Source: an uncultured virus (IMG/VR IMGVR_UViG_3300040960_001631) (lineage: Duplodnaviria > Heunggongvirae > Uroviricota > Caudoviricetes). Taken from it: DNA of 64,000 nucleotides. The stretch spans positions 1 to 64,000 of IMG/VR virus record IMGVR_UViG_3300040960_001631. One strand, written 5' to 3'. Every line of letters starts with the position of its first letter. Positions within the stretch are counted from its first letter, which is position 1. This document shows, piece after piece, positions 1,453 through 61,231 of this stretch. The notes below the pieces were generated by a model. The model was not told the DNA's origin and did no database searches. It was given only the letters and a program-made list of their open reading frames with translations. Both the position numbers and the translations under genes were made by a program.

Positions 1453-1489
1453 TGTGTCAAGCCCCTAAGTATTATACTTATTTATTCAA

Positions 1490-3391: not shown

Positions 3392-3394
3392 TTA

Positions 3395-12000: not shown

Positions 12001-15000
12001 TTTTGTACTGTATTTTGTATCTCCGTATAAAGACTGTCCGCTAATTCCTAGTTTAATGCCTTCTTCTGTGTCAGCAAGATTACTCCATTGGCTTGGAAGA
12101 TAATCGCTTTCTATCCACTCGTATACATTAATACTAGCACCTTCCGTTAATACTGACCAATTATTTTTTTGTTCAAAAATATTACCTTGATAAGGATACT
12201 TAAATCTAGCAGTGCTAATATTCCACCAAACTTGTCCTACATGTTCGTCAAACCATGTTTGATTTGGATCATATTCTCTATCTGATGCTGTGCCAACATT
12301 ATAAAATGCTGGATCGGTTTGAGTTTTAAACGTTATTTCTTGTTCTGCCGGACCTGCAATTTTACCTTGTATTGGATCAATATAATCAATATAACTTATT
12401 ATCCTATTAGTAGTTTTGTTATAAACAAATGCTCCTTCAATTAAATCTAAATTTACAGGGTTGACAATTTCTTTATATAGATTCCATGCTAATTTTGTTT
12501 TTGGTTTTCTATAATCTACAAACATGCCTTTAGAGTCGTTACTGTTATAGAACGGCATACCGACATATACGTGATTGTCTTTTGCAAGTAATCGTTTGCC
12601 AAATTCTATTGTTGCATTATCAAATCTAAATTTTTCACTGTAGGTATAAGAATTATTTAAATTTTCGTATACGTATATTACACCAGAGTCAATTTTAATA
12701 TTTCTAAATGCAGTAAACTCTAGATCAAAAGTTGTAGATTGGTTATCAAATGTAGTAGGTATAGTTTGATCACCATTTAAACTTGTTACTGCTAAGTTTT
12801 CATTAGTAAATGCAATTTGATAACCAAAATTTTCTGCTACTTCGTCTGCAGGACTATAAATTGTTTGACTTAATTCAAATTCTCCGTTTACTTGTGTATA
12901 AATTAAAACTGCACCTTGACCATATTTTCGAGAATCATCTGAAGGGACACTAACGGCAATTTGTCTACCGTCTGGTTTAATTACTACACTTTGCGCCCAG
13001 TTTGTTCTATCAATATACAAATCAGGTGTTGCATCTAAATTTTGTGTTCTAGAACCAGTTTCTGAAGTTACTATATTTCCTTCGCTATCTGTGTATATCC
13101 ATCCGTCTCCATCTTTTAAAAATTTATCTAAGTCATGATCTTTTAAATCATAGCCACTTATTGGAGCAGATATTGTTTGGTATAATTTATATTTGTTGTT
13201 TTCTTTTCTATAAATTGCTAATCGTTTGTTACTTGTACTATCAGTCGATTCTAGTTTTACAGTAACAACTAAAACTTCTCCGTTTTTACTTACATCAAAA
13301 TTTTCACTAAATTCAATAATGTTTGTAGCAGGATCAAACACATCTTCGTTAAAGAATGCATTGTTAGTAAGATTTGGCAAATAACCTAAATAATCAAAAT
13401 TATTATCAGTTACTTCCCAATAAGTATCACTAAATTCTGTTCCTGTTGCGATATTTGTTTTTGCAACATAAAAACTATTATCTTTAAGAACTATTGAATT
13501 TATTTCATAAGGGAAAGAATTGTCCCACTCCCCTCTATAATTGTCATCAACACCGTATCTCCAACTAATATTTGTCCAAACTATAGGATCAAGAATATTC
13601 AATTGCGAACTATCGTCGGTGTCTTTATTTGCTCTATAATATTTGTCTTTGTAAATTACTACATCACCTTCATTATAAGATGTAGCTTGATAATCCTTTT
13701 TAAATACATCTGTAGTTTCTGGACCAGTTACAAAAATTTCAATACTGCCAGGATCTGAACGTGTAGTAGGATCTAAGTCGCCTTTACTACCGACAAGTAG
13801 TACATAGGTATTTCCTTGTTTTCTAATTTTAACTTCGTCACCAAATTGTCTATTTGCAAACTTATATTGACTTGTGAGCATATAATCAAACTCATAAACA
13901 GCATTAGGTTGTCTCCTATAAATTACAACTGCGCCTTCATTGTCTAATCCACTCGATGTTCCTCTTTGATCAGCAGGTATGTTATAAACTTGAGTCCAAT
14001 TTTTATTTAAATTATAAGGTGGACTTGCTGGAATTGAAATGCCGCCTTCGATTGTTTCATCATAGAAGTAATATTCTCCATCAAATATTTCAGGAGTAGA
14101 TACTACATCAAATGGCGTATCTTTTTGGAAAACTAATAAATCTCCTACGAGATTAGTACCTAAAGCAATATCGTTACTTGGATCATCGATTGTACCCATT
14201 ACACGATCAACATCACCAGGTCCTCGAGCATCTTCATTCGCCTTTCTGCGAACCTGGAACCTACCAATATTATTCAGCTGATTCCAACTTCCGCTTAAAA
14301 CTTTTAAATAAACTCTTACAGAATTAAATTGCTTTTTATAAAAAACAACTTCTGCTGTACTTGTACTAGTGCTAGTAAGGGCTAAACCTCCTGAACCGTC
14401 TCTAGGAATTTGTACATCTTCAATAATATCTCCTACAACTGGCTCATATGGATTTCCTAAAAAGTCAAATTCTGTAAATTCAAAGTCAATATATCCGTCC
14501 CAGATATCATAAATTTGCTGAGACCCATTCATTTGATCAAGGTCAAAACCAGTAGATTCTAAATTTATTCCAGTATTTTCTGAGTCAAAAAATGTAAATT
14601 GTAGAGTTTTATTATCAGCACTACCTTGAGAATCAAATGCACTTATACTGGTTAAATAATCTTGGAAAGATTTACCAACTCTAACAACCCATAAGTTACT
14701 TAATTCTGGGCCGCTGTCACCATCATAACTTAAATTAGAAATATAACTTACACGATTTTTTTCTAATACAAATTCACCTATATTACCAACTGTATCCTGA
14801 ATGTTATAATACACAAATGGCCTGTCTGCATCGTCATTTTCTGCAGGACGTACATCTGCATAAACTAAACCTCGGCCTATATCTAAATACCTGCCATTAT
14901 TAGCATACTCGAATCCAGTTTCTATATACCAAAAACCGCCAATATCTGGTGATGTTGAATATGTTGATTCTTGTGTATAAAATCCTATAAAGTTTCCAGT

Positions 15001-18000
15001 ACTTTGTACAAAAATTTCATCAGTAACATTAAAAATACCGTTGATATTTTTTAGATACAGTACTGCAGAATCTCTATAACTAGCAACATAAAATACTTCA
15101 CCTGAGCCAGTATCACTTTCGATTGTATCGCCTACCTCAGGCAAACTTACAAAAGTATCAATATAAACAATTGCATCAATTTTTTCAACAATTTCGTGTT
15201 CTTGTGTAATAAATTCTTTTGTAATTTCTGGTATTTGATCGTCAAATGGCAAATAGTTATCTAGTGTTGGATATGCATAACTACGCTGGTTCCAAGATAA
15301 ATTAACTTTATCTCCAGAAGCACCGTCTATTCTACCTTTAGTTGCAAGATACATATCTAATGGAGCTCTTACTAGTATATGATCAATACCATTTGTAGGT
15401 AACCCAAATTTACCTGCAACTAACAATTGCAAACTTGTACTATCAGATGTATCAGAAGAAACAAGATTAATATAACTATCAAACGTACTAAATGTTTGTG
15501 TACCTACTTCAGGATTAACTGTAGTATTAGCTTTCCAAAAACTTTCTCTAAACTTAACAATATCATGTTTACTATACTCTACAGTAGGATCAAAATTTCC
15601 TAAAAATTTTGTTTTTATTCCTGACATGTTTGGTATGCCAATAGCAAGATATTCACCGTCTTCACTTACATCTATGCTTGATCCAAAGTTTTCAAAAGAG
15701 TCTTGGTAACTATTTTTTGTTTCTGTAAAATCAATTACCTGTTGTAAAATTAAATTAGCATTTTCTTTTGATCTTCTATATACATAAATTTTACCTGTTT
15801 CATCGCCAGAAGCAGAAACAAACAAATTATTATTATCATCAGTTACAGTCATTACGCCTGTAAAATTTTGAATAGTACTATCCCAATCAGAAGGATTATT
15901 ATATGTTTCTAAATATGAATAAACACTGTTGTTTTTTAAAACTGCCCAATTATTAGTGTTGTCATAATTGTCTATCCAGACTTTTTGCTCATTGTATAAT
16001 TTTTCATTAACAATATCATTTAAATTAGTAGTATCATCAAGACGCACTTCTCTGAGTTTAGAAACTGCAAATGATTGTTCTAAGAAACCTAAAATATCAT
16101 TTTCTATCGGAACTTTTATTTTTGCAATATTTAAATTAATATCTACAATTTTATAAAACCCATTAAGTTCGAATTCTTGTGCTCCGCGAACTGCAATTAA
16201 ATCGCCAATAGACAGCGTATTATCTAGCCATTTGTCCATAGACAACTCATAAATTAATTCGCCGGCATCATTTAAAGTATTTGCTTCTGTAAGTTCTGTT
16301 GCGTTTAAATTTGTGTCAATATGCTGATAAACAGTCCAGTTTTCATTTTCTTGATTTGTGAGATGTAAATAGCCGCCTAGTCTAAATACATTAACATTAC
16401 CTAAAGCTAAATCATCTATAGTGTAAGATTCAAAATCTATATCGTCTTCGCTAACATATCCAGAAGATTTTATGTATTCTTTACTTTGAGACAATACTGG
16501 AAAAACTGAACTAGTATATTCCTGTGGACGATCTAACAAATCTGAAGGTAACACTCTAAAGATATTATCAAATTGCTCTGCAGGAAGATTATCTACAAAT
16601 TCTACAGGCTGCGGACTAGATATCATTTTCTTTTCTTCGAGGTTTAACTCAATTTGTTGAATACTTTCTGAAGAACCGTATATACCTGATCGTACAGCCC
16701 ATTCTTCAAAATATTCTAAACTTTCCTCGCCAGACGCAGTTAAAGGAGCAAACAATTTTGAAAGACTGTTTTTTGTACCTTTTTCTTGGATATAGCCTTT
16801 ATAGAACTTTAGTTGACTTACATCGTCGACTATTAAATTACTTAGGTAATCTCTTTTTTGGAAGCCAATTAATCTAGATGCTAAATTGTGCAGAGATTGA
16901 TCAAAACTAGAAGTATTTGTATCGTAAAAATCGTTAAATTGATTTATTCTATAATCAAAATTTGTTAATAAATCCGGTACTGGTTTTTCATTTAGTTTGT
17001 ACCATTGATTATAATCTACACTTGTTGATCCCTGTATATTTTCTTTAGCAACATAATAATATTCTTTAAATTTTATAAGATCACCAATTTTGTAATCTTT
17101 ATAATTTTCAAAATCTTTAACTATAGCATTATCATACAAAAATCCTGGGATATTTAAGCCGCCATTCCAGTCTTCTGATCTATAACCATTAACTTTAATT
17201 CTTTGTTGTCTATAACCAGAAGCTGGGTGATAAATTACATCATTAAATATTGTTGTGTTAGATAGAACAACAACATGTTCTTTTTGTACAATAGGTAAAG
17301 ATGCTCCATATAATCCAAAGTCTGTATCTTTTATTTCTAATCCAAAACTATTATCTTCTCTTACTACACTGTTAAAGTTTCTATCAAGTGTTTGACCATT
17401 ACTTGAAACAATACTAGTATTATAAAAAGAATCAAATACATCATCTACAACTGAATAATTTGATTTAAAGAATAGTTTATTTGCAGCAGGACTTAAACTA
17501 ATAATTGTTCCATTAGCCCATCCTTGTGTAGTCCAGAACATAAATTCTTTTGTTACAGATACCCAATCATTTACTGTTTCGTCAGTTACGTCATCAAAAA
17601 CAAATCCTTGAGTAGTTAAATAGTTTCCGTAACCAGTAAGAAAATCTACTACTTCTTGAATACTTGTAAGTATAGATCCGTATGGTAATTTTTCTACTTT
17701 ATTGTTGTTAAAGTTTTTGTAAAACTCAGCTGTTCTACCTCCAATTGAAGGTAATGCAGGTAATTTAGCTAGGAAATCTGTTTCAAATATTCCTCCGCTT
17801 GTAAAATCTTGTGTTGCTCTATAATAAGTGTTTAGATGAAAAACTACCTGTCCCTTTTTGTATGGAGTTTGTTCGCTCCATTCTGAAAATTGTTCACTTA
17901 TTCCGCCAACCGATAAAATATAACTTGTTGATCCTACTAATGGTTTATAGTATTGGAAAAATGGTATTTTTGGATTATAACCCGTTACCTTAAATCCTGC

Positions 18001-21000
18001 AGGTGTTTTTTCAATAACTACACCACTATATACAAAGTTGTCTATAGGAGAACTTACATTATAAACTAAATTATAATTTTCTTGTGGTACAAAAATGCCC
18101 GTGGATCCTTTGTCCTGATTAGGAGACTTGCTTTCAAGAATAAGATTTAATTTTTGTTTATCACTAAATCCTCCTAATCTAAATGATAAATTTGTTTCTA
18201 ATGCAGTAACTTCATTTTGATAATCGCTATATACTGTTAATATATCACTTGCTAAAAGATTGTAAATGTAATTTACAAGTCCACAAGTTGTATTTCTAAT
18301 ATTATCTGCATATGTATTTGGAAATACAATGTCTTTATTTCTAAAGAATGTGCCTGAATCTTTATATATGTTTTGCCCTGCAAGGTTCTTTGTAAATCTT
18401 GATAAATCAAATCCTTTTGCTATTGTCTCTGCTGGATTAATTAGTAGCATAGACTTTAATAATGCAAAAGGATAATCGGAACTTTTCCTCCAAGCAGTTT
18501 CTATTGGAGAATAATCGCCAAATGCATAAGATTTAGAAGCATATCTTTGAACAAATCCTTTAACATAATTTATGTTTACTGGCGGTAATAGTTTACCTGT
18601 TTGATCTACTGGTATAAAAGATCTTAGATTTAGACGTTTGAATCTTTCGTCAATTCTACTATTATTAGGATCTGCTATTCTGCCATTTTCTAAATCTTCC
18701 CATAGTACTAGGTTGTTACTTGTATATGGTGCAGGACCGTAAACATCGTTCCACCATGTAGGTTTATTTCTAAATCCTAACATTTCCCACGGATTTGTGT
18801 GAGGACGATCTGTATCAAATGCTTGATTATAAATCCCTCTCCAGAAACCTGGCAAAACTTTGCCATCTGGATTATTAGATTCACTATAATTAAATGTAAA
18901 CCCATTATTTCTATCATAAAATGAGTTTGAAGAATAATCTGCTGCAATGTTGGCTTGCCATCTAGTAAAATCTGTCAACAATAAGTTATTTTGTTTTTCT
19001 AAAGTATTTTGATATCCTCTAAAATCGCCACCTGTAAAATTAAAAATATCAAACTCATTGTCGTCATATGAAATTTTAATATTACTAAAAATTCTTTTCT
19101 CAAATTCAATAATTAAACTGTCTCTAAAATCTTTGTAACATGCAATTTGACTTCCGTCATGTCCTCTAATAAATGCAAAACCGATTGGGTATTCATCATA
19201 ATCTTCTGGATTAGAATCTTTAGAGTAGTTAGCATTAGTTTCAGGCAAATAAAATTTTGTATTTAATCCCTTAAACCACACTGCCTGAGAAGCACCATTT
19301 CCTCCATTGTTACTGTCTGCTGTTTCAGCAGCATTTTTTGATGTATATACTGGATAGGTCCATCCGAACGAATTTTTTAATTGACCTACTTCTACTTCTC
19401 CGTATATTTTAAAAGGACCTGAAATTGTTAAAGATGTTTCATCTATACCGGTGTCATCTATAAAGACTTCCGGATACCAAGATGGATACAATCCTAATTT
19501 ACTAGGTGTAGGAGCAATAAAACTTCCATCTGTATTATTGTATTCGTATATTTCAATTGTGTCGCCATTTTCTTTTGCTGCAATGATCTCTATAAAGCCA
19601 TCTTCATTAAAATTATAGTCTCTACCATGTACAAGTATTTTGTTATTAAGATAAACAGTGATTGCTTTTTCTGACAATGTTGACATTGAAAATGCAGTTG
19701 TTAAAGGAAATAAATTTATTTCTTTATCAATCACATTATATTCTATTCTATTTGCATCGCCATAAGCAAGCATATCGCTAAAATAAAACGGTTGAGAATC
19801 TGCTTTGTCTTTGTTTATTTCTTTTAATATTTTATCTACGTGAGCTTTGGGAGTACCGTCAAATCCTAATGAACTTGCAGTATCTACAAATATTTTTTTT
19901 GTTTTGTTGTATTCTAATGCTGAATATTCAACAGCTTTTATCAAATTGTATTTTTTATTTGTTAAATGGTAAATTGCATTAGCTAAACCTGCTTCGTGTT
20001 TAACAAATCTTTTGCCAAACTGACTTATATTACCTAAATCTCTAAGATTGCTTGTACCAGGGTATGTGCCTGTAAATGATTGAAGATCTTCAATCATGCT
20101 ATCTACATGATCATAAACTTCGCCTAATGTAAATTGATTGATATCTTCATTAAGTGGATTTCTTTCTAAAGAAATAGGTAATTCATAATATCCGTTTTGA
20201 TTTTTATCAGCCGAGCTATGTAATTTTAATTTTAAATAATCTCCTACTGTTAAGTCGTTTACAAATGATACTAAAACCTTATTTTCTGTTTTAACAATAT
20301 TATAATCTGTATTTTTTAATTGTAGTTTATTATTAACATATACTTTGATTTTTAAATCTTCTAATAAATGAGGTTTATTGTAAACATCAACAGCAAAATT
20401 ATTTGTTAAGTTATCAGTAACTTCAATATCTCTAATAACATATTGTGTAAATCTACTTGGAGTAGAATTCCAACCATTTACATATTTAAAAGTTGTTCTA
20501 TCAGAATATTTTCTTAAATTTGATGTAGACGTAGGAACTTCAATTAAATCTTCATCGTTTTGATAAGAAAATACATCTGTAAGCAAATTAAATTCAAAAA
20601 GAATATCGCCTGTATTTTCTATATTTCTATATTGTAACGCAAATCCTAATTCGTTATCTACTGTTCCTGTGCCTTCTTTGTAACTAAAAATTTTAGTGCC
20701 ACTAAATGTGGAACTTTCAAAAATAGTTGTATTACTATATTCATTTCCTTGTGGACAACATAAATCAAATAAAGGTGGTTGATTGACTGCTAATTTTTCT
20801 TGTGCAGCAATCCACATATTTTCATGATAATGAAAAGTTTTTCCTGAATATACTTCACCTAGTTTTACAAATACGTTTTCTAAATCTAACGGAGTAGAAT
20901 CCGCAGTTTCTACAAGATTGATAATTCTTTCAGTACCAATAGTTATAAATTTAACTTCATAAATTTTACCGCTAACTAATTGATCGGTATCAGCTCTGAA

Positions 21001-22608
21001 TAGAACTCTCATACCTTGTGCTAGTTCTACTCCATCAATAATATATCCTTGCGATCCTTGTATAGTACTAAACACATCAGTTGTAAAATTATCTAATAAG
21101 TCTACATCTTGTTTAGCAAATGTTCCGTAATTAAAAAGTTTCAATCCTGCATTAAATTCAATGATAGGACGTTTTGCTCTAAAATTATCATCTAAATTTT
21201 CTGCAATGTTATTATATTCGAAACTTTTTAAAACAACATCTTTATGGAACCATCTGTTATTTCTAGTCCAAGGGTTTTTATCTTGTGATGCTCTGTTTAT
21301 TATTAAATAATCTTTTTCTAAAGGATAGTTATTTGCTGTAGCAAACGGCGATACATCAAATTCTTCTGAATCAAACGGGACTCGAATATTATCTGTATAC
21401 GCAGACGGAATAACTAATTCTCTTTGTGAAATTAATTTAATATTTTCGCCAACGCCTTCTACATACCAATTTCCTTCGTTATATTTTTCAGGAACAACTG
21501 TACCTTGAAATCTAACAAGTAATCCGTTTGTAAAGTCTACACCGTTTGAACTTTGATAATATTTTTTTCCTAGTATATCTGTGTCAATATTTAAAAAGGT
21601 GTTTTCTTCAACGTCAAAGACTCGTATTTGGCCACTTGTGTTTACGTCATTTTGGCTAATATAAAATAGTCTATCAGGTGCATTAGCAGGTATTGTAAAT
21701 TCAATTGTTCCTTTTTCTACATAAACAACTGCAACTTCGTCGCCATCTTCATTAAATTTAGTAATACCATCATTGTATAATGTTGACACATTTTCATCTG
21801 CTTCAAATGTTACACTTCCGGCATCAGGCGTAATAATAAAATCACCAATGTCATATTCGTTGCCATACAAGTCGGCACCGTACAATCCATCTGATCTAAT
21901 TCCTTCTCTGCCTGCAACTAATAGAGCCAATCCTGGTATAAAAGTTCTACTTATAGAAAATGCTAAAGGGTGTCCTGGAGTATCAATTTCAAATCTATAT
22001 GTTTGACCTCTATAAAGTTTTAATTTTGGATTTCTAGTAAACCCATCATTAAATACATATGCAACATTATCGCCCTGGTCTTCTAAAGTAACTGTGTATG
22101 TACTTGTAATATCTCTCGATTGTCCCCTTACAGGAACACTCATAGGACCATTTGGCAGCCAATAGTAGTCTCTAAAATTTGTAAACGTATCCCAATTGAT
22201 ATGCGGAGTCCAACTATAAGTATCTACTGTATTAAGAGAATTATGATTATTTGTATCTGCACCAAAATATCTTAAAATGTTTATGTAGTCTTTGTAATCT
22301 TTTAAAAAATCTACATTTTCTAAATTATCACGTATAACTACTGATGGCTCTAGTTGATAGTTTTCTCTATCATTACTAATTTCTGGTATATAACTATCTG
22401 TAGACTTATAAGAACTAGTATACTTTCTACCTACATAGCCGTCTACTTTTTCGGCAGCGCCGTCTGATATTAACTGATCTAAAGTACCTTGTAGAAACTT
22501 TCTGTTAGCTTCTGTTCTAAAGAACTTAGGTAAAAAATCTATTGACTTTTTCTTTTTACTATTAGGCGTTGGTAAAGCACTTTCGTTTTGATTGTTATTA
22601 TAAGCCAT
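6073..22608 (-). CDS. Giant (5511 aa) baseplate wedge/fibre-like structural protein
   Basis: Uninterrupted 16.5-kb ORF overlapping the gp6-like stop; propeller-like repeats (FGSSIDVSEDGEYLAIG), aromatic W/F-x5-Y-x2-G-D-x-V repeats, PGxGYxxxP repeats. Confidence 0.65.
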   Translation of the reverse strand: MAYNNNQNESALPTPNSKKKKSIDFLPKFFRTEANRKFLQGTLDQLISDGAAEKVDGYVGRKYTSSYKSTDSYIPEISNDRENYQLEPSVVIRDNLENVDFLKDYKDYINILRYFGADTNNHNSLNTVDTYSWTPHINWDTFTNFRDYYWLPNGPMSVPVRGQSRDITSTYTVTLEDQGDNVAYVFNDGFTRNPKLKLYRGQTYRFEIDTPGHPLAFSISRTFIPGLALLVAGREGIRSDGLYGADLYGNEYDIGDFIITPDAGSVTFEADENVSTLYNDGITKFNEDGDEVAVVYVEKGTIEFTIPANAPDRLFYISQNDVNTSGQIRVFDVEENTFLNIDTDILGKKYYQSSNGVDFTNGLLVRFQGTVVPEKYNEGNWYVEGVGENIKLISQRELVIPSAYTDNIRVPFDSEEFDVSPFATANNYPLEKDYLIINRASQDKNPWTRNNRWFHKDVVLKSFEYNNIAENLDDNFRAKRPIIEFNAGLKLFNYGTFAKQDVDLLDNFTTDVFSTIQGSQGYIIDGVELAQGMRVLFRADTDQLVSGKIYEVKFITIGTERIINLVETADSTPLDLENVFVKLGEVYSGKTFHYHENMWIAAQEKLAVNQPPLFDLCCPQGNEYSNTTIFESSTFSGTKIFSYKEGTGTVDNELGFALQYRNIENTGDILFEFNLLTDVFSYQNDEDLIEVPTSTSNLRKYSDRTTFKYVNGWNSTPSRFTQYVIRDIEVTDNLTNNFAVDVYNKPHLLEDLKIKVYVNNKLQLKNTDYNIVKTENKVLVSFVNDLTVGDYLKLKLHSSADKNQNGYYELPISLERNPLNEDINQFTLGEVYDHVDSMIEDLQSFTGTYPGTSNLRDLGNISQFGKRFVKHEAGLANAIYHLTNKKYNLIKAVEYSALEYNKTKKIFVDTASSLGFDGTPKAHVDKILKEINKDKADSQPFYFSDMLAYGDANRIEYNVIDKEINLFPLTTAFSMSTLSEKAITVYLNNKILVHGRDYNFNEDGFIEIIAAKENGDTIEIYEYNNTDGSFIAPTPSKLGLYPSWYPEVFIDDTGIDETSLTISGPFKIYGEVEVGQLKNSFGWTYPVYTSKNAAETADSNNGGNGASQAVWFKGLNTKFYLPETNANYSKDSNPEDYDEYPIGFAFIRGHDGSQIACYKDFRDSLIIEFEKRIFSNIKISYDDNEFDIFNFTGGDFRGYQNTLEKQNNLLLTDFTRWQANIAADYSSNSFYDRNNGFTFNYSESNNPDGKVLPGFWRGIYNQAFDTDRPHTNPWEMLGFRNKPTWWNDVYGPAPYTSNNLVLWEDLENGRIADPNNSRIDERFKRLNLRSFIPVDQTGKLLPPVNINYVKGFVQRYASKSYAFGDYSPIETAWRKSSDYPFALLKSMLLINPAETIAKGFDLSRFTKNLAGQNIYKDSGTFFRNKDIVFPNTYADNIRNTTCGLVNYIYNLLASDILTVYSDYQNEVTALETNLSFRLGGFSDKQKLNLILESKSPNQDKGSTGIFVPQENYNLVYNVSSPIDNFVYSGVVIEKTPAGFKVTGYNPKIPFFQYYKPLVGSTSYILSVGGISEQFSEWSEQTPYKKGQVVFHLNTYYRATQDFTSGGIFETDFLAKLPALPSIGGRTAEFYKNFNNNKVEKLPYGSILTSIQEVVDFLTGYGNYLTTQGFVFDDVTDETVNDWVSVTKEFMFWTTQGWANGTIISLSPAANKLFFKSNYSVVDDVFDSFYNTSIVSSNGQTLDRNFNSVVREDNSFGLEIKDTDFGLYGASLPIVQKEHVVVLSNTTIFNDVIYHPASGYRQQRIKVNGYRSEDWNGGLNIPGFLYDNAIVKDFENYKDYKIGDLIKFKEYYYVAKENIQGSTSVDYNQWYKLNEKPVPDLLTNFDYRINQFNDFYDTNTSSFDQSLHNLASRLIGFQKRDYLSNLIVDDVSQLKFYKGYIQEKGTKNSLSKLFAPLTASGEESLEYFEEWAVRSGIYGSSESIQQIELNLEEKKMISSPQPVEFVDNLPAEQFDNIFRVLPSDLLDRPQEYTSSVFPVLSQSKEYIKSSGYVSEDDIDFESYTIDDLALGNVNVFRLGGYLHLTNQENENWTVYQHIDTNLNATELTEANTLNDAGELIYELSMDKWLDNTLSIGDLIAVRGAQEFELNGFYKIVDINLNIAKIKVPIENDILGFLEQSFAVSKLREVRLDDTTNLNDIVNEKLYNEQKVWIDNYDNTNNWAVLKNNSVYSYLETYNNPSDWDSTIQNFTGVMTVTDDNNNLFVSASGDETGKIYVYRRSKENANLILQQVIDFTETKNSYQDSFENFGSSIDVSEDGEYLAIGIPNMSGIKTKFLGNFDPTVEYSKHDIVKFRESFWKANTTVNPEVGTQTFSTFDSYINLVSSDTSDSTSLQLLVAGKFGLPTNGIDHILVRAPLDMYLATKGRIDGASGDKVNLSWNQRSYAYPTLDNYLPFDDQIPEITKEFITQEHEIVEKIDAIVYIDTFVSLPEVGDTIESDTGSGEVFYVASYRDSAVLYLKNINGIFNVTDEIFVQSTGNFIGFYTQESTYSTSPDIGGFWYIETGFEYANNGRYLDIGRGLVYADVRPAENDDADRPFVYYNIQDTVGNIGEFVLEKNRVSYISNLSYDGDSGPELSNLWVVRVGKSFQDYLTSISAFDSQGSADNKTLQFTFFDSENTGINLESTGFDLDQMNGSQQIYDIWDGYIDFEFTEFDFLGNPYEPVVGDIIEDVQIPRDGSGGLALTSTSTSTAEVVFYKKQFNSVRVYLKVLSGSWNQLNNIGRFQVRRKANEDARGPGDVDRVMGTIDDPSNDIALGTNLVGDLLVFQKDTPFDVVSTPEIFDGEYYFYDETIEGGISIPASPPYNLNKNWTQVYNIPADQRGTSSGLDNEGAVVIYRRQPNAVYEFDYMLTSQYKFANRQFGDEVKIRKQGNTYVLLVGSKGDLDPTTRSDPGSIEIFVTGPETTDVFKKDYQATSYNEGDVVIYKDKYYRANKDTDDSSQLNILDPIVWTNISWRYGVDDNYRGEWDNSFPYEINSIVLKDNSFYVAKTNIATGTEFSDTYWEVTDNNFDYLGYLPNLTNNAFFNEDVFDPATNIIEFSENFDVSKNGEVLVVTVKLESTDSTSNKRLAIYRKENNKYKLYQTISAPISGYDLKDHDLDKFLKDGDGWIYTDSEGNIVTSETGSRTQNLDATPDLYIDRTNWAQSVVIKPDGRQIAVSVPSDDSRKYGQGAVLIYTQVNGEFELSQTIYSPADEVAENFGYQIAFTNENLAVTSLNGDQTIPTTFDNQSTTFDLEFTAFRNIKIDSGVIYVYENLNNSYTYSEKFRFDNATIEFGKRLLAKDNHVYVGMPFYNSNDSKGMFVDYRKPKTKLAWNLYKEIVNPVNLDLIEGAFVYNKTTNRIISYIDYIDPIQGKIAGPAEQEITFKTQTDPAFYNVGTASDREYDPNQTWFDEHVGQVWWNISTARFKYPYQGNIFEQKNNWSVLTEGASINVYEWIESDYLPSQWSNLADTEEGIKLGISGQSLYGDTKYSTKLIYDEVSQIFSTKYYYWVESKRTVPDIENRNLSIFEIVNLIERPRENGYRYISFLGADRIVLNNFENILSGDDLVLNIKYKSQATKDSNLHKEFKLIADGDANSKLDVDIERKWFDSLIGFDTNNRPVPDIKLPETQKYGILNMPRQSMFVNRIEALKQTIERINIIFKDLLIVDDYNTARLFETDLAPTLISSKYDLSVDTVEELQYVSTNNLSPAKLIPIISNGELVRVEIESPGRGYKTVPTININGSGVDAEIKLQINNLGSVISAEVTNTGKNYTNQTTISVRRFGVLVNADSTAKNLWSIYGYNEIDKTWFRTSTQGYDVPKYWNYIDWYAPGYNQFTKINYEIDESYELQELEPEFNSIIKIKSIGSSGWLLLKRIGTTDNEDYTVDYETIGRENGTIQFTSNLYNIQQSTVGYDNRSFDSTLYDTNPAKELRIIFEALRDDIFINELAVEYNQLFLSSLRYVVAEQPLLDWAFKTSFIKINHKLGELDQPATFKKDNLEYFENYVKEVKPYKTNIREFVASYDKTDPTNSVVTDFDAAPFYNTTTQQIETIKTTVFDGALLQVDNILQEYPRKYFADNLGAELSEIKIKNPGSGYIFPPKVIIEDSSNSGATAEAFIGYGKVTAIKVRNPGGRFINPPKITLEGAQTEDGTPATAFAILGKSLVRTPSIKVKFDRVSGEYFIEDLAVSETFTASGVDTIFDLKWPIDVRKNKVKVFVDDQEMLKSTYQVSNREIIDQYTKNKGRLTFNNAPTGNSVIRIEYYKPLEFLEAADRIKFAYNPTDNMFGKELNQLMTGIDYGGVEVKSFDFGGSSGWDSQPWFTDAWDVYENTFEDEVFVSDGSTIAVELRAPLEEGIVYNLYKNGVRIDATDFVAGTPEIPGTDEIPGNPADAEYNNGAISNVTGNGSDFFKRELTVNGVRIMGAGTVGGQTAVPDAWLEKVARMFELFLDPNGAGINESYQRALIKTLSGDAGTYHAGLPTLQRVARGAGADYSPNFLTDQGVIDWNLTNLFDTHVQNDMVWYLNSTGDGYGDGDTDAQEVIEHVFHTLHMHGLPADDIKLYQFLAADWQSGDLYAAMEEAYDAGKWDPSGYQANPDDWKTIADAFEVAAKEYLYLLNFAMFEYTELWDGGSLAPEWSDDMRTQAGILANNPLGYAFHNTYIAPVISKPSLATIRSIFQDGNTPAQDNPALAGVSGYVVDELVGGTDAVAAIPAVPGSSATNVNAITNSITGDGTTTIIETSNLGINLNDGDIFIVRKITSDGSITPDLASYDTALEGGDLAYTTAAGINAEEIITDGDLFVSTSRAKTEELVPGSMFDTLDIKVYTKESGNQGLIICNNIETDITGTFTYNFGLLPGSKDSILVKYDGNVLSKDQYTIDWPNKQLSLEVESNKQLSIILQEQSTSTSVMYSDEITVEETEQYDFVIDYTWDDSLSLSVTVNGELQNITVFDYSTEVAGDNRTAFRLENAATQGQIINYTIFSNNETVDFSQVLTDEFTANGITQTYALSSAPFYSLPTEHNIIVRVDQNILNSGYSRNFTIPESNQREYQLELFQQPAGSLSAEGLKVFLNGEEIFTPEQWRLDIANSSVILGDEYGLPGDNIEIYNISESEYSISGNEVILKDLPGVNSKVYVYQFSNHNLKDIEKIQYDVVKRETLINDEETNTYNRLTAGEILLRKPALDAQYVWITKNSELLIPSVDYYVTDNRTKIQLVEVPAANDVIEVIHFAAEISQDGFSYRQFKDILNRTHFKRLDASTAKLAQPLNYYDLRIEVDNGIDLPVPDKGKNMPGIIFINGERIEYFVKEDNTLRQIRRGTLGTGVPTVHNLGTKVYNQNIEKTVPYKDQNLVANITADGIVNTFNIGYNIESINEIEVFAEGKRLRKNSISVFDPTIDIDSPNGDITIEAEFSVDVDNNSITLLNIPTENSRITIIKKQGQSWTKEEETLGDAQNSIARFLRAGTYEHPE

Positions 22609-57295: not shown

Positions 57296-57838
57296 ATGTC
57301 AAAACTATTAGCATTTTTATGTGCAAGCGTTATCCTATCCGCATGTGGAGCAAAAATAAACGATTCTAAACCTTTACTAACAGCAGCAGAAAAAATAGGA
57401 CTAGAAGAACATAGAGACAGGGCAGAACTACGTGAGTACACAGGCGTAGATCCTGTGCGTACAGAATGGTGTGCAGCGTTTGCTAATGCAGTTCTTAACG
57501 AAAGCGGAATACCAGGAAGCGAAAGCGTAAGTGATGTACCTCTAATGGCACGTTCGTTTCTAACTTGGGGCAATAAAATTAGCAAAGAAGAAATACGTGC
57601 AGGAGATCTTGTTGTATTCCCAAGAGGCAATGCAGGATGGCAAGGACACGTTGGATTTTATATTAGAACAATAGATCGTAACGGTGTTTTATATTATGCT
57701 ATACTTGGCGGCAATCAATCTAACAAAGTTTCAATTGAGCTATATCGTGCTAGTCGTGCGCTAGGCATAAGAAGATCTGAACAACAAATTAGTATGCCTA
57801 CTGAGCTAGATGATTTAACAGTTGACAAAGTACAATAA
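57296..57838 (+). CDS. TIGR02594-type (NlpC/P60/CHAP-like) peptidase, probable lipoprotein
   Basis: WCAAFAN, ARSFLTWG, GDLVVF.RG...GHVGF, LGGNQ; lipobox LSAC with start at MSKLL (57296). Confidence 0.8.
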   Translation: MSKLLAFLCASVILSACGAKINDSKPLLTAAEKIGLEEHRDRAELREYTGVDPVRTEWCAAFANAVLNESGIPGSESVSDVPLMARSFLTWGNKISKEEIRAGDLVVFPRGNAGWQGHVGFYIRTIDRNGVLYYAILGGNQSNKVSIELYRASRALGIRRSEQQISMPTELDDLTVDKVQ

Positions 57839-57854
57839 TCGTGTATAATAAATA
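57822..57854 (+). promoter_or_regulatory. Sigma70-type promoter overlapping a TAAATA box
   Basis: TTGACA (57822-27), 16 bp, TATAAT (57844-49); TAAATA at 57849-54. Confidence 0.65.
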
Positions 57855-57907
57855 GTATGGGCAATTTGCCTATATTTCTAATCTGCAGACAGACACAGGA
57901 GAATTGT

Positions 57908-58441
57908 ATGATTGAAGGATTTAAGTTACCACAGGTAACATTTAAAACACGGGTGCGTGATGAAAGTATTGGCGGCAATAACCCTTATCGTTGGGAAGAT
58001 AAAACTACAGACGATTACTTTAAAGGTAAGCGTGTAGTACTATTTTCGCTCCCTGGAGCATTCACGCCAACTTGTTCTACTTACCAGCTTCCAGGCTTTG
58101 AAGAAAACTACGATAATATTCGTAACCGAGACATCGATGAAATTTATTGTATGAGTGTTAACGATGCATTTGTTATGAATGCTTGGGCAAAGTCACAAGA
58201 CATACAAAATGTAAAAGTTATTCCAGATGGCTCAGGCAACTTTACTCGCTTTATGGGTATGTTGATTGGAAAGAACCATTTAGGCTTTGGTAACCGTTCT
58301 TGGCGTTATATGGCAATCATTAACGATGGTGTTGTTGAAAAGTGGTGGCAAGAACCTGGCATTAACAACGATGGCACCGATGATGATCCATATGTAGAAT
58401 CAACACCAGAAAATTGCATAAAATATCTTGAAAATAGATAA
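57908..58441 (+). CDS. Peroxiredoxin (Prx5/redoxin type)
   Basis: LPGAFTPTCS, SVNDAFVMNAW, PDGSGNFT, RSWRY; AGGAG RBS before ATG 57908. Confidence 0.92.
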   Translation: MIEGFKLPQVTFKTRVRDESIGGNNPYRWEDKTTDDYFKGKRVVLFSLPGAFTPTCSTYQLPGFEENYDNIRNRDIDEIYCMSVNDAFVMNAWAKSQDIQNVKVIPDGSGNFTRFMGMLIGKNHLGFGNRSWRYMAIINDGVVEKWWQEPGINNDGTDDDPYVESTPENCIKYLENR

Positions 58442-59126
58442 AGCACTTATAATTCGCAGACTCCAAGTTCCATTATCTATGGAATATGCACAAATTTGTG
58501 CAGAGTCTTGCGAAAAATATAATCTTCCGTACGAATTTATAGATGCAGTTGAGTTTTTAAACTGCAAAAAAGCATTTCAATCTGTAGGAACCTACAAAAA
58601 CGGAAATTATCATATAAGAGATGGCAACTGTTGTTGTCATGCATCACATATAAAGTGTTGGAAACGGATTATTGAATTAAACAAAGCATGTATAATTTTA
58701 GAACATGATGCAGTAGTAAAGGGTAATGTACGTAATATTGATATACCTGATATGGCTACAGTAACGTTCGGTCATAGAGTTGGTAGTATTGATGACTATA
58801 GTCCACCAGAAGAAGCATACAAATTAGTAAGAATAAAAAGATCATTAGGTGTACATGCTTGTGGCTTAACACCTATAAGTGCAAAATGGTTATGGGAACA
58901 TGCAAGAGACAACGGAGTAAAAGCAGAAGTTGATCATTTATTAATGATGAGACCTCCTACACTATTACCGTTGTATGTATGTGAACCACCTCAAGTAGTA
59001 TGTTGGGAAAGAGTTTCTACTTCTAAATTTACAAAAGATAATTACATAGATGATAGACCTAATGAAACTATAAAAGTTTTTCCAGAATCTATTACTGAAG
59101 GCTGGAAAAAAGGCAAAAAAATATAA
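58428..59126 (+). CDS. Glycosyltransferase family 25-like protein
   Basis: FIDAV, CHASHIKCWKRI, IILEHDA. Confidence 0.7.
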   Translation: MKIDKALIIRRLQVPLSMEYAQICAESCEKYNLPYEFIDAVEFLNCKKAFQSVGTYKNGNYHIRDGNCCCHASHIKCWKRIIELNKACIILEHDAVVKGNVRNIDIPDMATVTFGHRVGSIDDYSPPEEAYKLVRIKRSLGVHACGLTPISAKWLWEHARDNGVKAEVDHLLMMRPPTLLPLYVCEPPQVVCWERVSTSKFTKDNYIDDRPNETIKVFPESITEGWKKGKKI

Positions 59127-59134
59127 AAAAATGG

Positions 59135-59162
59135 TTGACTTTTATTTGTAAGATGTTATATT
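59135..59162 (+). promoter_or_regulatory. Sigma70-type promoter for the candidate ncRNA
   Basis: TTGACT (59135-40), 16 bp, TATATT (59157-62), with TG one base upstream of the -10. Confidence 0.6.
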
Positions 59163-59167
59163 AATAA

Positions 59168-59375
59168 TATAACAAGACGTTGTTATACGGGTTGGCGCTA
59201 ATAATTTCCAATCTAGAGGAAATAGGCGCACTTGGTTAGGGGTAGTGCCCGGCATGTACTACAGAGATGTAGAGTATGCTAACTGCGATACTAAGCAGAA
59301 CCGAGGTTCTAGGCGTAACAGATGAAAGGTATCTAGACGCATAGTTGGAGGTAAACCCAAGTCCTTCACCCACCC
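59168..59375 (+). ncRNA. Candidate ~190-210-nt multi-branched structured RNA
   Basis: Closing helix plus at least seven internal helices, between a promoter and a terminator. Confidence 0.7.
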
Positions 59376-59382
59376 TTAATTT

Positions 59383-59410
59383 AAAGCCCGCCACTGTGCG
59401 GGCTTTTTCT
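59383..59410 (+). terminator. Rho-independent terminator
   Basis: AAAGCCCGC-CACTGT-GCGGGCTTTTT. Confidence 0.85.
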
Positions 59411-59506
59411 TTATTTGATAAATACTTGTGTCTAATAGTGTGCCGCAAGGCGGACTTATGCGGGAACCCACCGCGTAGACCTAGAACGTCAATTAAGGAG
59501 AAAACA

Positions 59507-59890
59507 ATGGGAAGACCAATAAACAAAAGAAAAATAGGCCTTGGCCTAGGAAAAATTGAAGTATCAACTGTAAAATTTGCAGCTGGCGGCGAAGTAACTA
59601 ATGCATGGATTGTGTCACAAAGATCATCTAATAAATTTATTGTATCAGACGGTACTAAAACAGAAACTTGTACACTAGTTAACAAGGCATCAGGTGCATT
59701 AGGTGCTAGCGAATTTAATATTAATGCTGTTTTAGACGACTCTACTGTTGTACAAGTTACCAAACTTTATAATAGAAAAATTCAATATGAAGCAGGCACA
59801 GCTGATGTAGATACTATAAAGTATAATGTTGGACCAGGCGACGAAAACGATGATTCAACAGGAACAGCAACAGTTCCAGTTCAAGACTAA
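59507..59890 (+). CDS. Putative virion structural protein
   Basis: Start MGRPINKRK after AAGGAG (the track ORF from 59345 crosses a terminator); TAAATA at 59419. Confidence 0.65.
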   Translation: MGRPINKRKIGLGLGKIEVSTVKFAAGGEVTNAWIVSQRSSNKFIVSDGTKTETCTLVNKASGALGASEFNINAVLDDSTVVQVTKLYNRKIQYEAGTADVDTIKYNVGPGDENDDSTGTATVPVQD

Positions 59891-59902
59891 TAGGAATAGT
59901 AA

Positions 59903-60856
59903 ATGTCAAAATACGTAAAAACCAGTGGTGATTTTACGATAAAGACATCTTCTGGTGGTACCATAAAATTGGACACAGGCGGTGAAGTAGGTTTAGTTTG
60001 GGTAACCGGCGACCTACGAGTCCAAGGTACCACTACTACTGTTCAGTCAACTGATGTAACAATAACCGACAACATAATAGAATTAAATGCTGGCGAAACA
60101 TCAGGCTCTGTTACACTAGGTTCATCAGGTATAAGAATTGTTAGAGATGTAAATCCTGGCGCCGACGCTTATTGGGCTTATCACGACGATACACCTGATC
60201 CTATAAATGGAAGAGGTTTATGGAGAGCACGACACGATAGCGGCGATTTTGTAGGTATTGCAACTAATCATATTAATACTAGCGGAAGTAATTTATATCT
60301 AATTAATTCTAATAGCGGTGTTGTTACAGTTGGAACAAGTCTTAATTATGAAAATAGGGTAACTGATCCTAATCACGTACCTAATAAAAAATATGTAGAT
60401 GATTCTATTTCAACTGCATTTGCAACAGTTCTCCTACCACAAATTGGTGATGGTGTATTAACACCGTCTGGTATTGTTGTAAGAGATGAAGAAACTACAG
60501 GTGTAGATAGTCGCATCGATTTTTCAATCGATAATACTTTAGTTGCACAATTATTTTCCGATGGTTGGGAATTTACTGACATAAGGATTAGTGGTACAAC
60601 TATTGAAACTATGACTACCGATGCCGACGATTTACTTTTAAGAGCATGGGGCGACGGTTCTGTAAGAATTGAAGATACATTGTTAATTAATAAAGTACCT
60701 TCAGGTTATACTCCTAGTGTTCCAGACGATGGCGTTAAAGTATATACATCAAACGAATACACAGGCAATACAGGAATATATTTCGTAAATGAGAACGAAA
60801 CTAGAGATGAATTAGTAAGTAAAAATAGATCTTTACTTTTTAGTATGATATTTTAA
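59903..60856 (+). CDS. Putative virion structural/fibre-related protein
   Basis: VTGDLRVQGTTTTVQSTDVTITDNIIELN resembles a segment of the 1490-3391 fibre; PNKKYVD motif. Confidence 0.6.
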   Translation: MSKYVKTSGDFTIKTSSGGTIKLDTGGEVGLVWVTGDLRVQGTTTTVQSTDVTITDNIIELNAGETSGSVTLGSSGIRIVRDVNPGADAYWAYHDDTPDPINGRGLWRARHDSGDFVGIATNHINTSGSNLYLINSNSGVVTVGTSLNYENRVTDPNHVPNKKYVDDSISTAFATVLLPQIGDGVLTPSGIVVRDEETTGVDSRIDFSIDNTLVAQLFSDGWEFTDIRISGTTIETMTTDADDLLLRAWGDGSVRIEDTLLINKVPSGYTPSVPDDGVKVYTSNEYTGNTGIYFVNENETRDELVSKNRSLLFSMIF

Positions 60857-60865
60857 GGAACAACA

Positions 60866-61231
60866 ATGGCAATAATAAATGCTCAATTAAAAACAACTCC
60901 TACAGAAATACTCGACCCAACGGGTGTAGGAGTACCTGTAGGCGCAGTTCCTACAGGTAAATCATATGCAATTACAAATATTTTAGTTTGTAATACTAAC
61001 TTAGTAGATGATGCAACATTTGATATGCATCTTATACCATCTGGCGATCCTTTAGACAACGCAGTTACAGCAGTTGTTAGAAGTTTAACACTTCCACCAG
61101 GAGAAACTTTTACATTTGATTCAGAAAGAATAATTTTAGAAGAAGGTGATAAAATTAGTTTTGTTGCAACACCAGATATTGGCAGTGGCTTAACTAATCT
61201 TGCAGCAACAGTAAGTTATTTGGAAGTATAA
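60866..61231 (+). CDS. Putative structural protein
   Basis: 121 aa, beta-rich, in the late operon. Confidence 0.55.
   Translation: MAIINAQLKTTPTEILDPTGVGVPVGAVPTGKSYAITNILVCNTNLVDDATFDMHLIPSGDPLDNAVTAVVRSLTLPPGETFTFDSERIILEEGDKISFVATPDIGSGLTNLAATVSYLEV

Follow-up and report, generated by a model that had tools for sequence, protein, structure and literature searches.

Does the structured RNA encoded towards the end of a 64,000-nucleotide (nt) stretch of an uncultured tailed phage form a gene of its own, or is it the regulatory leader of the gene behind it? The stretch, which we call the window, comprises positions 1 to 64,000 of the IMG/VR record IMGVR_UViG_3300040960_001631 (Caudoviricetes), and the RNA, almost certainly a member of the manA family, lies at 59170-59377 on the plus strand, between a glycosyltransferase-like gene and a conserved gene for a 127-amino-acid protein. 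manA RNAs have been filed for sixteen years as candidate cis-regulatory riboswitches without a ligand, and a 2026 preprint, in the part of its text available, shows them forming RNA-only cages in vitro. An initial annotation, made from the sequence alone, had proposed a stand-alone, early, trans-acting phage RNA for positions 59135-59410. The explanation that best fits the whole of our results, and which we hold to be probable with some reserve, is a free-standing manA-family RNA gene in a large T4-like phage, acting in trans and assembling through kissing loops. This locus and its relatives add to the family manA as a complete gene unlinked from a regulated gene, gain and loss of the RNA as a cassette, and covariation of the cage-building loops in natural sequences, which together shift the balance towards a trans-acting, possibly multimeric RNA.

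Family membership and fold of the RNA

A covariance-model scan of the 64-kb window against Rfam returned manA (RF01745) at 59170-59377 (+) with 81.2 bits against a cut-off of 55.2 (E-value 4.3e-19), in an alignment that spans model positions 1-192 of 192 without truncation, and the likeness to the manA motif noted in the initial annotation was thereby borne out. Freshwater-2, discussed below, was the only other Rfam family to reach its cut-off in the window. 6S RNA, transfer-messenger RNA (tmRNA) and RNase P RNA resemble the manA unit in size range and as stable free-standing RNAs, but at the manA locus none of them was matched, even at an E-value as weak as 1. Within the 120-kb viral record of which the window is part, manA occurs once, and a search of this genome gave the same 81.2 bits. 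The class of RNA, catalogued in 2010, is already known, and the strong Rfam match removes its novelty; taken alone, what lies here is a divergent but otherwise ordinary representative of that family, which drops out as a candidate "new RNA".

All structural elements of manA were found: the 5' hairpin, the closing stem, P3, a four-way junction with three hairpins, P8 and P9. The numbering of helices P1-P9 is our own mapping along the Rfam model and agrees with the loop set of the preprint and with its GNRA loop in P6. The 5'-terminal hairpin P1 (59168-59187, +; model positions 1-16) reads TATAACAA-GACG-TTGTTATA, with the GACG loop of the Rfam consensus, and it is followed by a core (59188-59372, +) that in the comparative model is closed by P2 (CGGGT/ACCCA) and contains P3, the four-way junction P4-P5-P6-P7, P8 and P9. 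Pairs of the Rfam alignment present in the window are GCGC/GCGC with TTTCC/GGAAA, CTTGGTT/AACCGAG, GGG/CCC, GCAT..CTAC/GTAG..ATGC, CTGC/GCAG, GCGT..AGAT/ATCT..ACGC and GGAGG/CCTTC; these are the inner helices that had been drawn from the sequence alone, and the 5' hairpin also lies where it had been placed. The closing stem proposed with them exists in a different register: its 3' arm had been put at 59370-75, and the comparative model pairs CGGGT at 59188-92 with ACCCA at 59368-72, directly after P9. The shift of about 4 nt arises because ACCC is repeated, and the single-sequence fold favours the earlier register over that of the comparative model.

Comparison with classical manA showed nine helices, the GACG loop of P1, the AAUAA joiner between P2 and P3, the GGUA...UCC of P9 and phage origin to be shared. 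The window departs from the family consensus by a paired change, GUAGUG for GUGGUG in L5 and ACUA for ACCA in L7, and at the end of P9, which reads AGUCC and not AAUCC. It further differs from the classical copies in its loop pairs (L5/L7 UAGU/ACUA against UGGU/ACCA, and L8/L9 GGU/ACC against CUGU/ACAG), in having a terminator, and then a late promoter separate from the unit, where they have a gene next in line, and in a carrier that resembles jumbo phages of Proteobacteria and not a T4-like cyanophage. The available part of Weinberg et al. (2010; Genome Biol 11:R31, PMC2864571) describes manA as a probable riboswitch in 5' untranslated regions (UTRs). In the window the manA copy does not lie in the 5' UTR of a gene, since the terminator (59383-59413) and the late promoter (59417-59424) intervene before the next gene; this placement is a trait of annotation and not of the fold, and membership in manA is unaffected by it.

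Relatives were collected by synteny and by sequence. The synteny set came from 278 relatives of the 127-amino-acid downstream protein in viral contigs, from which the best 80 loci were kept. Pattern 1, taken from the first alignment with the centre of L5 and all of L7 left free, gave at least 80 loci, and pattern 2, which used the P9 and 3'-end parts of the Rfam consensus, gave at least 80 loci of the classical marine type (set 2). A covariance model, R1, made from four sequences with the Rfam-derived structure without P1, matched 24 of the 80 syntenic loci, 40 of 80 pattern-1 loci and 70 full-length copies among 80 pattern-2 loci. The window's own subtype (set 1) amounts to 53 distinct copies, 52 of them with enough flanking sequence, and covariation was counted on 49 distinct sequences. 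Rfam manA reached its cut-off in all 20 sampled pattern-2 loci (57-197 bits) and in only 10 of the 20 sampled pattern-1 loci, which means that the Rfam model misses about half of the window's subtype. Divergent manA-like RNAs also occupy the same slot, some 160-370 nt ahead of the gene, which starts at position 2501, at loci L004, L009, L036, L040, L073, L074, L076 and L006 (27-44 bits with R1), and manA was not reported at the cut-off for L004, L009 and L036, which were scanned with Rfam. Because half of the sampled pattern-1 loci and several syntenic variants fall below the Rfam cut-off, the window's manA belongs to a divergent, low-scoring subtype that straddles the threshold. A blastn search of 58400-60900 against 50,697 phage records gave no match.

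The fold is supported by energy and by comparison. The 245-nt stretch has a minimum free energy of -81.2 kcal/mol, whereas 200 shuffles gave -65.0 +/- 5.0 and none of them folded as well (z -3.26). Its single-sequence fold gives the same layout as the manA model. Covariation among homologs, which had been named as a check on the structure, was found in the 49 distinct set-1 sequences: in an alignment fitted to the model, and hence biased in the model's favour, 84.6% of the pairing cells pair, where column shuffles give 63.6% and a displacement of the partners by 1-3 columns gives 37-50%, and 39 of 49 pairs change on both sides, with 4-7 such pairs in each of alignment helices 1, 3, 4, 7, 8 and 9.

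Two smaller statements about the unit did not survive in full. It had been described as containing no open reading frame (ORF), and mechanical ORFs do overlap it, the largest on the minus strand at 59236-59763 with 175 amino acids; as a gene this frame was rejected as spurious, since among 49 distinct homologous loci only that of the window keeps it open and its median length is 66 codons. The complementarity of CCAAG to CTTGG, suggested as a possible pseudoknot or switch, is real in the window, and as a conserved feature it was rejected: it shows no covariation, and at least 5 pairs form in only 10 of the 49 distinct sequences, all of them of the window's own subtype.

The transcription unit and its variable slot

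Upstream of the RNA stands a sigma70-type promoter (59135-59162, +) composed of TTGACT, a 16-nt spacer and TGT-TATATT, with 10 of 12 matches and a TG before the -10 element. A site of this type with at least 10 of 12 matches was found at the same distance in 51 of 52 distinct set-1 copies, mostly with the TG, against 24 of 1000 random anchors in the same loci. The single copy without its own promoter (locus L119, 633-839) lies directly behind a permuted (alpha-type) tmRNA gene (291-622). The set-1 -10 element ends 24-37 nt before P2, which puts the predicted transcription start on the first bases of P1, at about 59168-59170 in the window. The set-2 promoter rule was satisfied by 57 of 65 classical copies, with two of the misses inside transfer RNA (tRNA) arrays, and in standing directly behind a host-type promoter the window copy resembles them. 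The promoter is of host type, to be read by the host RNA polymerase, and for that reason transcription is presumably early. In many classical set-2 loci (e.g., L232, L248 and L266) a G+C-rich hairpin about 20-60 nt upstream of manA has the -35 element TTGACA as its loop and a T-run behind it (GAGGG-TTGACA-CCCTC-TTTTTTT), so that in these copies an upstream terminator and the manA promoter form one compact element.

Downstream, an intrinsic terminator (59383-59413, +) has the form AAAGCCCGC-CACTGT-GCGGGCTTT with 9 pairs, 6 of them G-C, and a T-rich tract; the hairpin itself occupies 59383-59406, starts 6 nt past the manA motif and is followed by TTCTTTATTT. In appearance this terminator is ordinary and unconditional. 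Terminator-like hairpins with a T-run occur within 110 nt of 44 of 52 distinct set-1 copies, against 183 of 1000 random anchors, and the sequence of their stems varies between lineages while their place is constant. Transcripts modelled from the predicted start to the end of the hairpin measure 235-272 nt, that of the window being 238 nt, or about 245 nt with the U-tail. In 43 of 43 modelled transcripts the terminator stem forms with a pair probability of 0.90-0.99 (0.96 in the full transcript of the window). The 5' arm of the terminator pairs no better with its own upstream RNA than with that of other copies (duplex energies of -8.53 and -8.73 kcal/mol), and neither this comparison nor the 43 transcripts revealed a detectable antiterminator.

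The promoter and the terminator named in the initial annotation were thus both present where it had located them, and the relatives retain them. The unit also changes as a whole between near-identical phages. Loci L006 and L005 have both flanks identical and differ by a promoter-manA-terminator block of about 330 nt, and the same gap is seen at locus L057. In all four loci aligned, the left border of the cassette is a terminator whose T-run overlaps TTGACT. Remnants were found as well, with promoter and terminator lacking manA at loci L057-60, L064 and L065 and the 3' end of manA alone at L063. The presence or absence of the whole block between near-identical phages, together with terminators that differ by lineage, agrees with the stand-alone unit originally proposed, and the window's manA is very probably a free-standing transcription unit. 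In relatives the manA slot also houses glutamine-riboswitch-like RNAs, tRNAs and permuted tmRNA, and the unit behaves as a cassette in a variable slot that is a cluster of structured RNA genes.

Several further observations concern this slot. Polymorphism for presence of the whole block was seen at loci L005-L008, L057-L060 and L063. Many relatives have a match to the glutamine riboswitch (glnA RNA, RF01739) at a distance of a few hundred nt from manA (L091 343-392, L118 345-392, L143, L124, L129, L099, L025 1976-2023, L062 1986-2033 and L147 897-943); the window does not. Promoter-stem-loops are reported by Arbiol and co-workers (2010) to be shuffled in T4-type phages, and the manA cassette appears to resemble such recombination sites.

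Loop complementarity and proposed assembly

If the RNA is a gene of its own, what its product does may be sought in its loops. On the plus strand of the window these are L3, AATCTAGA (59210-59217); L5, GTAGTG (59242-59247; family consensus GTGGTG); L7, ATACTA (59288-59293; family consensus ..ACCA); L8, GAAAGGT (59324-59330); and L9, TAAACCCAAGT (59352-59362). L5 and L7 can form five pairs including one G-U (UAGUG/UACUA), the change from G to A in L5 being matched by one from C to U in L7, and L3 and L8 can form four, again with one G-U and with the register shifted by one (AUCU/AGGU).

The relatives indicate that these complementarities are maintained. In classical copies L5 UGGU and L7 ACCA are invariant, and hence uninformative on covariation, and the evidence comes from the distinct sequences of the window's subtype. 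Where the centre of L5 is A (16 sequences), L7 is ACTA in 15; where it is T (4 sequences), L7 is ACAA or ACAG in all four; and where it is G (29 sequences), L7 is ACCA or ACCG in 16, CCCG in 7, AACCC in 2, ACTG in 2, ACTA in 1 and CACTT in 1. These counts were made on the sequences themselves, as L7 is aligned in two registers and counting by column (alignment helix 6) under-counts the L5-L7 changes. For L8 and L9, at least seven complementary states occur over both sets: UAAUG/CAUUA, ACUGU/ACAGU, ACGA/UCGU, CUUUA/UGAAG, GAGA/UCUC, AUGA/UCAU and GGU/ACC. In a permutation test in which loop types were collapsed and partners permuted 5000 times, with the mean Watson-Crick run as the measure, the observed value was 3.60 for L5-L7 (permuted mean 3.26; 10 of 5000 as high), 3.60 for L8-L9 (2.97; 0 of 5000) and 2.78 for L3-L8 (2.47; 4 of 5000). 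Five of the six other loop pairs showed no excess (968-4996 of 5000 as high), and L7-L9 was borderline (254 of 5000).

The same three loop pairs appear in the structures reported by Ren et al. (2026 preprint, bioRxiv 10.64898/2026.07.01.735769). As far as the available part of that preprint goes, cryo-electron microscopy showed manA RNAs as decamers, as an octamer and as an icosahedral cage of 60 subunits, built from pentamers by intermolecular kissing loops. One construct used L5-L7' together with L8-L9', another L5-L7' together with L3-L8' and a GNRA contact L6-P6', and the report gives L5-L7', L8-L9' and L3-L8' between subunits over five manA constructs. The window RNA belongs to the same family, and the contacts of the preprint are the pairs with excess complementarity here; it differs from those RNAs in that its P6 ends in AGAGA and not in a GNRA tetraloop, and in an L8-L9 contact of only three pairs. 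Other phage-associated RNAs, ROOL and GOLLD, are reported as RNA-only homo-oligomers in the accessible text of Kretsch et al. (2024 preprint, 10.1101/2024.12.08.627333). Like manA they are orphan, highly structured RNAs of phages or prophages that so far lack a target, and unlike it they are much longer and are unrelated to it in sequence and fold.

The conserved complementarity of the loops and the in vitro structures of other family members are the grounds on which we propose self-assembly. Under this proposal early transcription by the host RNA polymerase would turn the unit into a discrete RNA, about 245 nt long, which a hairpin at each end, P1 at the 5' end and the terminator at the 3' end, would make stable; 5' stem-loops protect bacterial RNAs. 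The RNA would then act in trans and not on its neighbouring gene. Folded monomers would join through the kissing contacts L5-L7' and L8-L9', and possibly L3-L8', into closed assemblies based on pentamers that might serve as a scaffold or a sequestering particle. That manA multimerizes in vivo through the L5-L7, L8-L9 and L3-L8 loops is a real possibility, which we judge slightly less likely than not. A broader reading, which we offer tentatively and regard as rather doubtful as a whole, is that manA RNAs are phage genes for self-assembling RNA particles and not riboswitches, with the cage or ring as the functional form in infected cells, for example as a sequestering or decoy particle. manA would then always be made from the 5' end of a strong host-type transcript, which in the jumbo-phage subtype would end at the terminator and leave a separate RNA some 245 nt long, and the loop contacts of the pentamer, decamer and 60-mer would be under purifying and compensatory selection in nature. 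In the manA literature that we searched, so far as its text was available, we found no description of a terminated stand-alone architecture, of cassette behaviour or of natural covariation in the cage-forming loops.

The closest competitor accepts the free-standing, trans-acting RNA and makes it a monomer, in which intramolecular loop contacts lock a compact fold that binds a protein of host or phage or a small molecule, in the manner of 6S RNA or protein-sponging small RNAs. It draws on the same promoter, terminator and cassette evidence, and the loop covariation is compatible with either mode of pairing; L5 and L7, and L8 and L9, belong to neighbouring hairpins between which an intramolecular kiss is geometrically conceivable, and the manA figure of Weinberg et al. 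(2010), in the part of that paper available, carries a tentative "pseudoknot?". We nevertheless consider a monomer unlikely, as the available text of the Ren et al. preprint places the loop contacts between subunits in five constructs, and no protein partner is consistently encoded beside manA, whose neighbours vary.

The downstream gene, the classical copies and the carrier phage

A cis-regulatory role would require a link to the gene that follows, and that gene is equipped with control elements of its own. A T4-type late promoter, GATAAATA, lies at 59417-59424 (+) and marks the 3' boundary of the RNA unit. T4 late promoters read TATAAATA. The site was called because TGATAAATA, between the terminator and the freshwater-2 leader, is invariant in four divergent loci, and because ATAAATA is biased to intergenic sequence, with 12 of its 15 occurrences on both strands of the window falling in intergenic DNA, which makes up 4.2% of the sequence, mostly in the right orientation and 9-89 nt ahead of the start of a gene; taken by itself, the full octamer GATAAATA shows no enrichment there (2 sites in the window, 5.7 expected). 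About 15 nt past this motif begins a freshwater-2 RNA (RF02980; 59439-59509, +; 55.1 bits against a cut-off of 49.9), an RNA that forms the leader of the 127-amino-acid gene and ends at its ATG. The gene itself (59507-59890, +) has 278 relatives in viral contigs, and its product could be assigned to no family in PHROG or Pfam. Of 20 related loci scanned, 13 gave freshwater-2 at or above its cut-off, with manA present or not. The main text of Weinberg et al. (2017) makes no mention of freshwater-2. manA was found in only 24 of the 80 loci that carry the downstream gene; the remaining 56 keep the leader, and 38 of them have ATAAATA 83-104 nt before the ATG. These comparisons indicate that the downstream gene is independent of manA, with its own late promoter and its own leader RNA. 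Among the relatives, freshwater-2 was observed as the constant partner of this gene family and manA as an optional one.

A riboswitch, with the manA core as aptamer and the hairpin at 59383-59406 as an expression platform that gates early read-through into the gene at 59507, would agree with the Rfam type of the family (Cis-reg) and with its rating as a probable riboswitch by Weinberg et al. (2010), who, in the available part of the paper (PMC2864571), called manA cis-regulatory from its arrangement upstream of genes. It would also suit the classical marine copies that stand directly before genes (gp32-like and transaldolase-like ORFs) and the 6 of 52 set-1 copies in which no terminator separates manA from the next gene, and the window copy does share with transcription-terminating riboswitches a structured domain just behind a promoter and just before an intrinsic terminator. 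Unlike in those riboswitches, the domain and the terminator neither overlap nor compete for a helix, the next gene has its own promoter, and there is no fixed gene association. The terminator lies outside the motif, beyond an A/U-rich linker of at least 6 nt, and its stem, at a probability of at least 0.90 in 43 of 43 transcripts, has no matched competing pairing. Across the family, the genes downstream of manA have no common function, those in 70 classical copies ranging from gp32-like and transaldolase-like ORFs to tRNAs, and no manA ligand was found in the manA literature searched. The riboswitch reading fails two testable criteria here, antiterminator pairing and association with genes of one pathway. 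A free-standing early RNA fits better because manA is missing from 56 of the 80 loci with the downstream gene and because whole cassettes are gained or lost between near-identical phages, and we judge a riboswitch at this locus to be distinctly improbable. Least probable is that the RNA is a passenger of a mobile promoter/terminator cassette, which would persist because its stem-loop-plus-promoter repeats promote recombination in variable parts of T4-like genomes; the RNA would then do no more than stabilise a 5' end. The clean presence or absence of the block, its left border at the overlap of T-run and TTGACT, the remnant cassettes and the hot-spot slot speak for this reading. Against it stand nine helices kept by compensatory change across very divergent phages, loop-loop covariation and the strong promoter retained by 51 of 52 set-1 and 57 of 65 classical copies.

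The classical copies complicate the picture of a free-standing RNA. In most of them a gene (gp32-like, transaldolase-like or another) or a tRNA comes immediately next, and a terminator-like site follows only 23 of 69 classical set-2 copies, against a background of 131 of 1000; about 9 of these 23 sites are one conserved hairpin (GACCTAAGATGCAAC...GGTC). With most classical copies lacking a terminator, a leader role is common family-wide, and the free-standing form may be a speciality of the window's subtype. These facts count against the proposal of a free-standing, self-assembling RNA, and so do other points. The sets, gathered by synteny and two sequence patterns, are not an unbiased sample, pattern 1 fixed the GG in L8 and most of L5, and the promoter and terminator detectors were simple scripts of our own. 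The permutation counts given above are not probabilities, as related sequences are not independent, and loop covariation cannot separate intramolecular from intermolecular pairing; the window's L8-L9 contact (GGU/ACC) has only three pairs. The Ren et al. preprint is unreviewed, and in its available part the RNAs, from constructs of other sources, were refolded in vitro at about 3 mg/mL with 10 mM Mg. Expression is a further such point. The stretch is present in sequencing runs of metagenomes from estuaries, seawater, salt marsh and freshwater, and in three metatranscriptome studies, among four runs examined as contigs, whole short contigs correspond to the manA core with no mismatch (59187-59371, 59210-59369 and 59197-59351); in one of these runs the flanking genes have similar low depth and a contig extends from the upstream gene across the promoter to 59177. 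In another run the greater depth of manA-like contigs is due to relatives, and it was left out of account. Such contigs show neither transcript ends nor levels, and carry-over of DNA is possible, and they are evidence of presence in RNA libraries and nothing more.

On balance, the common denominator of the family is that manA is the first element of a host-type transcript, and the terminated, free-standing form is typical of the window's subtype. The conserved hairpin of the classical copies, about 37 nt long (GACCTAAGATGCAAC...GGGCAGATGGTC), lies 1-45 nt past many of them, often followed by a T-run (L207, L249, L256, L233, L264, L231, L218, L234, L268 and others), and no Rfam family matched it at the cut-off.

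The carrier of the window's manA is probably a large T4-like phage of a heterotrophic proteobacterium, as suggested by the similarity of its capsid. PHROG and Pfam scans of the window identified gp46/47-like nucleases, portal, prohead protease, major head protein, baseplate wedge and tail-fibre proteins, and the major head protein is closest, at 65-68% amino acid identity, to those of jumbo phages of Sinorhizobium, Vibrio, Pseudomonas (PA5oct), Erwinia and Xanthomonas. The carriers expected for manA are T4-like cyanophages and marine gamma-proteobacteria; the window does have T4-like structural genes, and no psbA was found in the 120-kb record, which is 34% complete by CheckV. RF01745 was not found in the five jumbo phages with the closest capsids (Vibrio 2.275.O, PA5oct, Phosso, Kaldavass and XbC2), an empty answer that is not proof of absence. 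The manA family appears to reach beyond cyanophages.

The genes before the RNA vary among relatives. In the window a peroxiredoxin gene (57857-58441, from the PHROG and Pfam scans) precedes a glycosyltransferase family 25 (GT25)-like gene (58428-59126, +; PF01755, 46 bits against a cut-off of 24), which ends 9 nt before the manA promoter. At loci L054, L056 and L066 a CHAP/NlpC-like gene alone adjoins the late gene on its upstream side, and the window, which over 57299-59126 adds the peroxiredoxin and the GT25-like glycosyltransferase, and then manA, before the late gene, looks at this point like an insertion hot spot for accessory genes. Elsewhere in the window, among the baseplate and tail-fibre genes, a single open frame of 5,511 codons occupies 6073-22608 on the minus strand.

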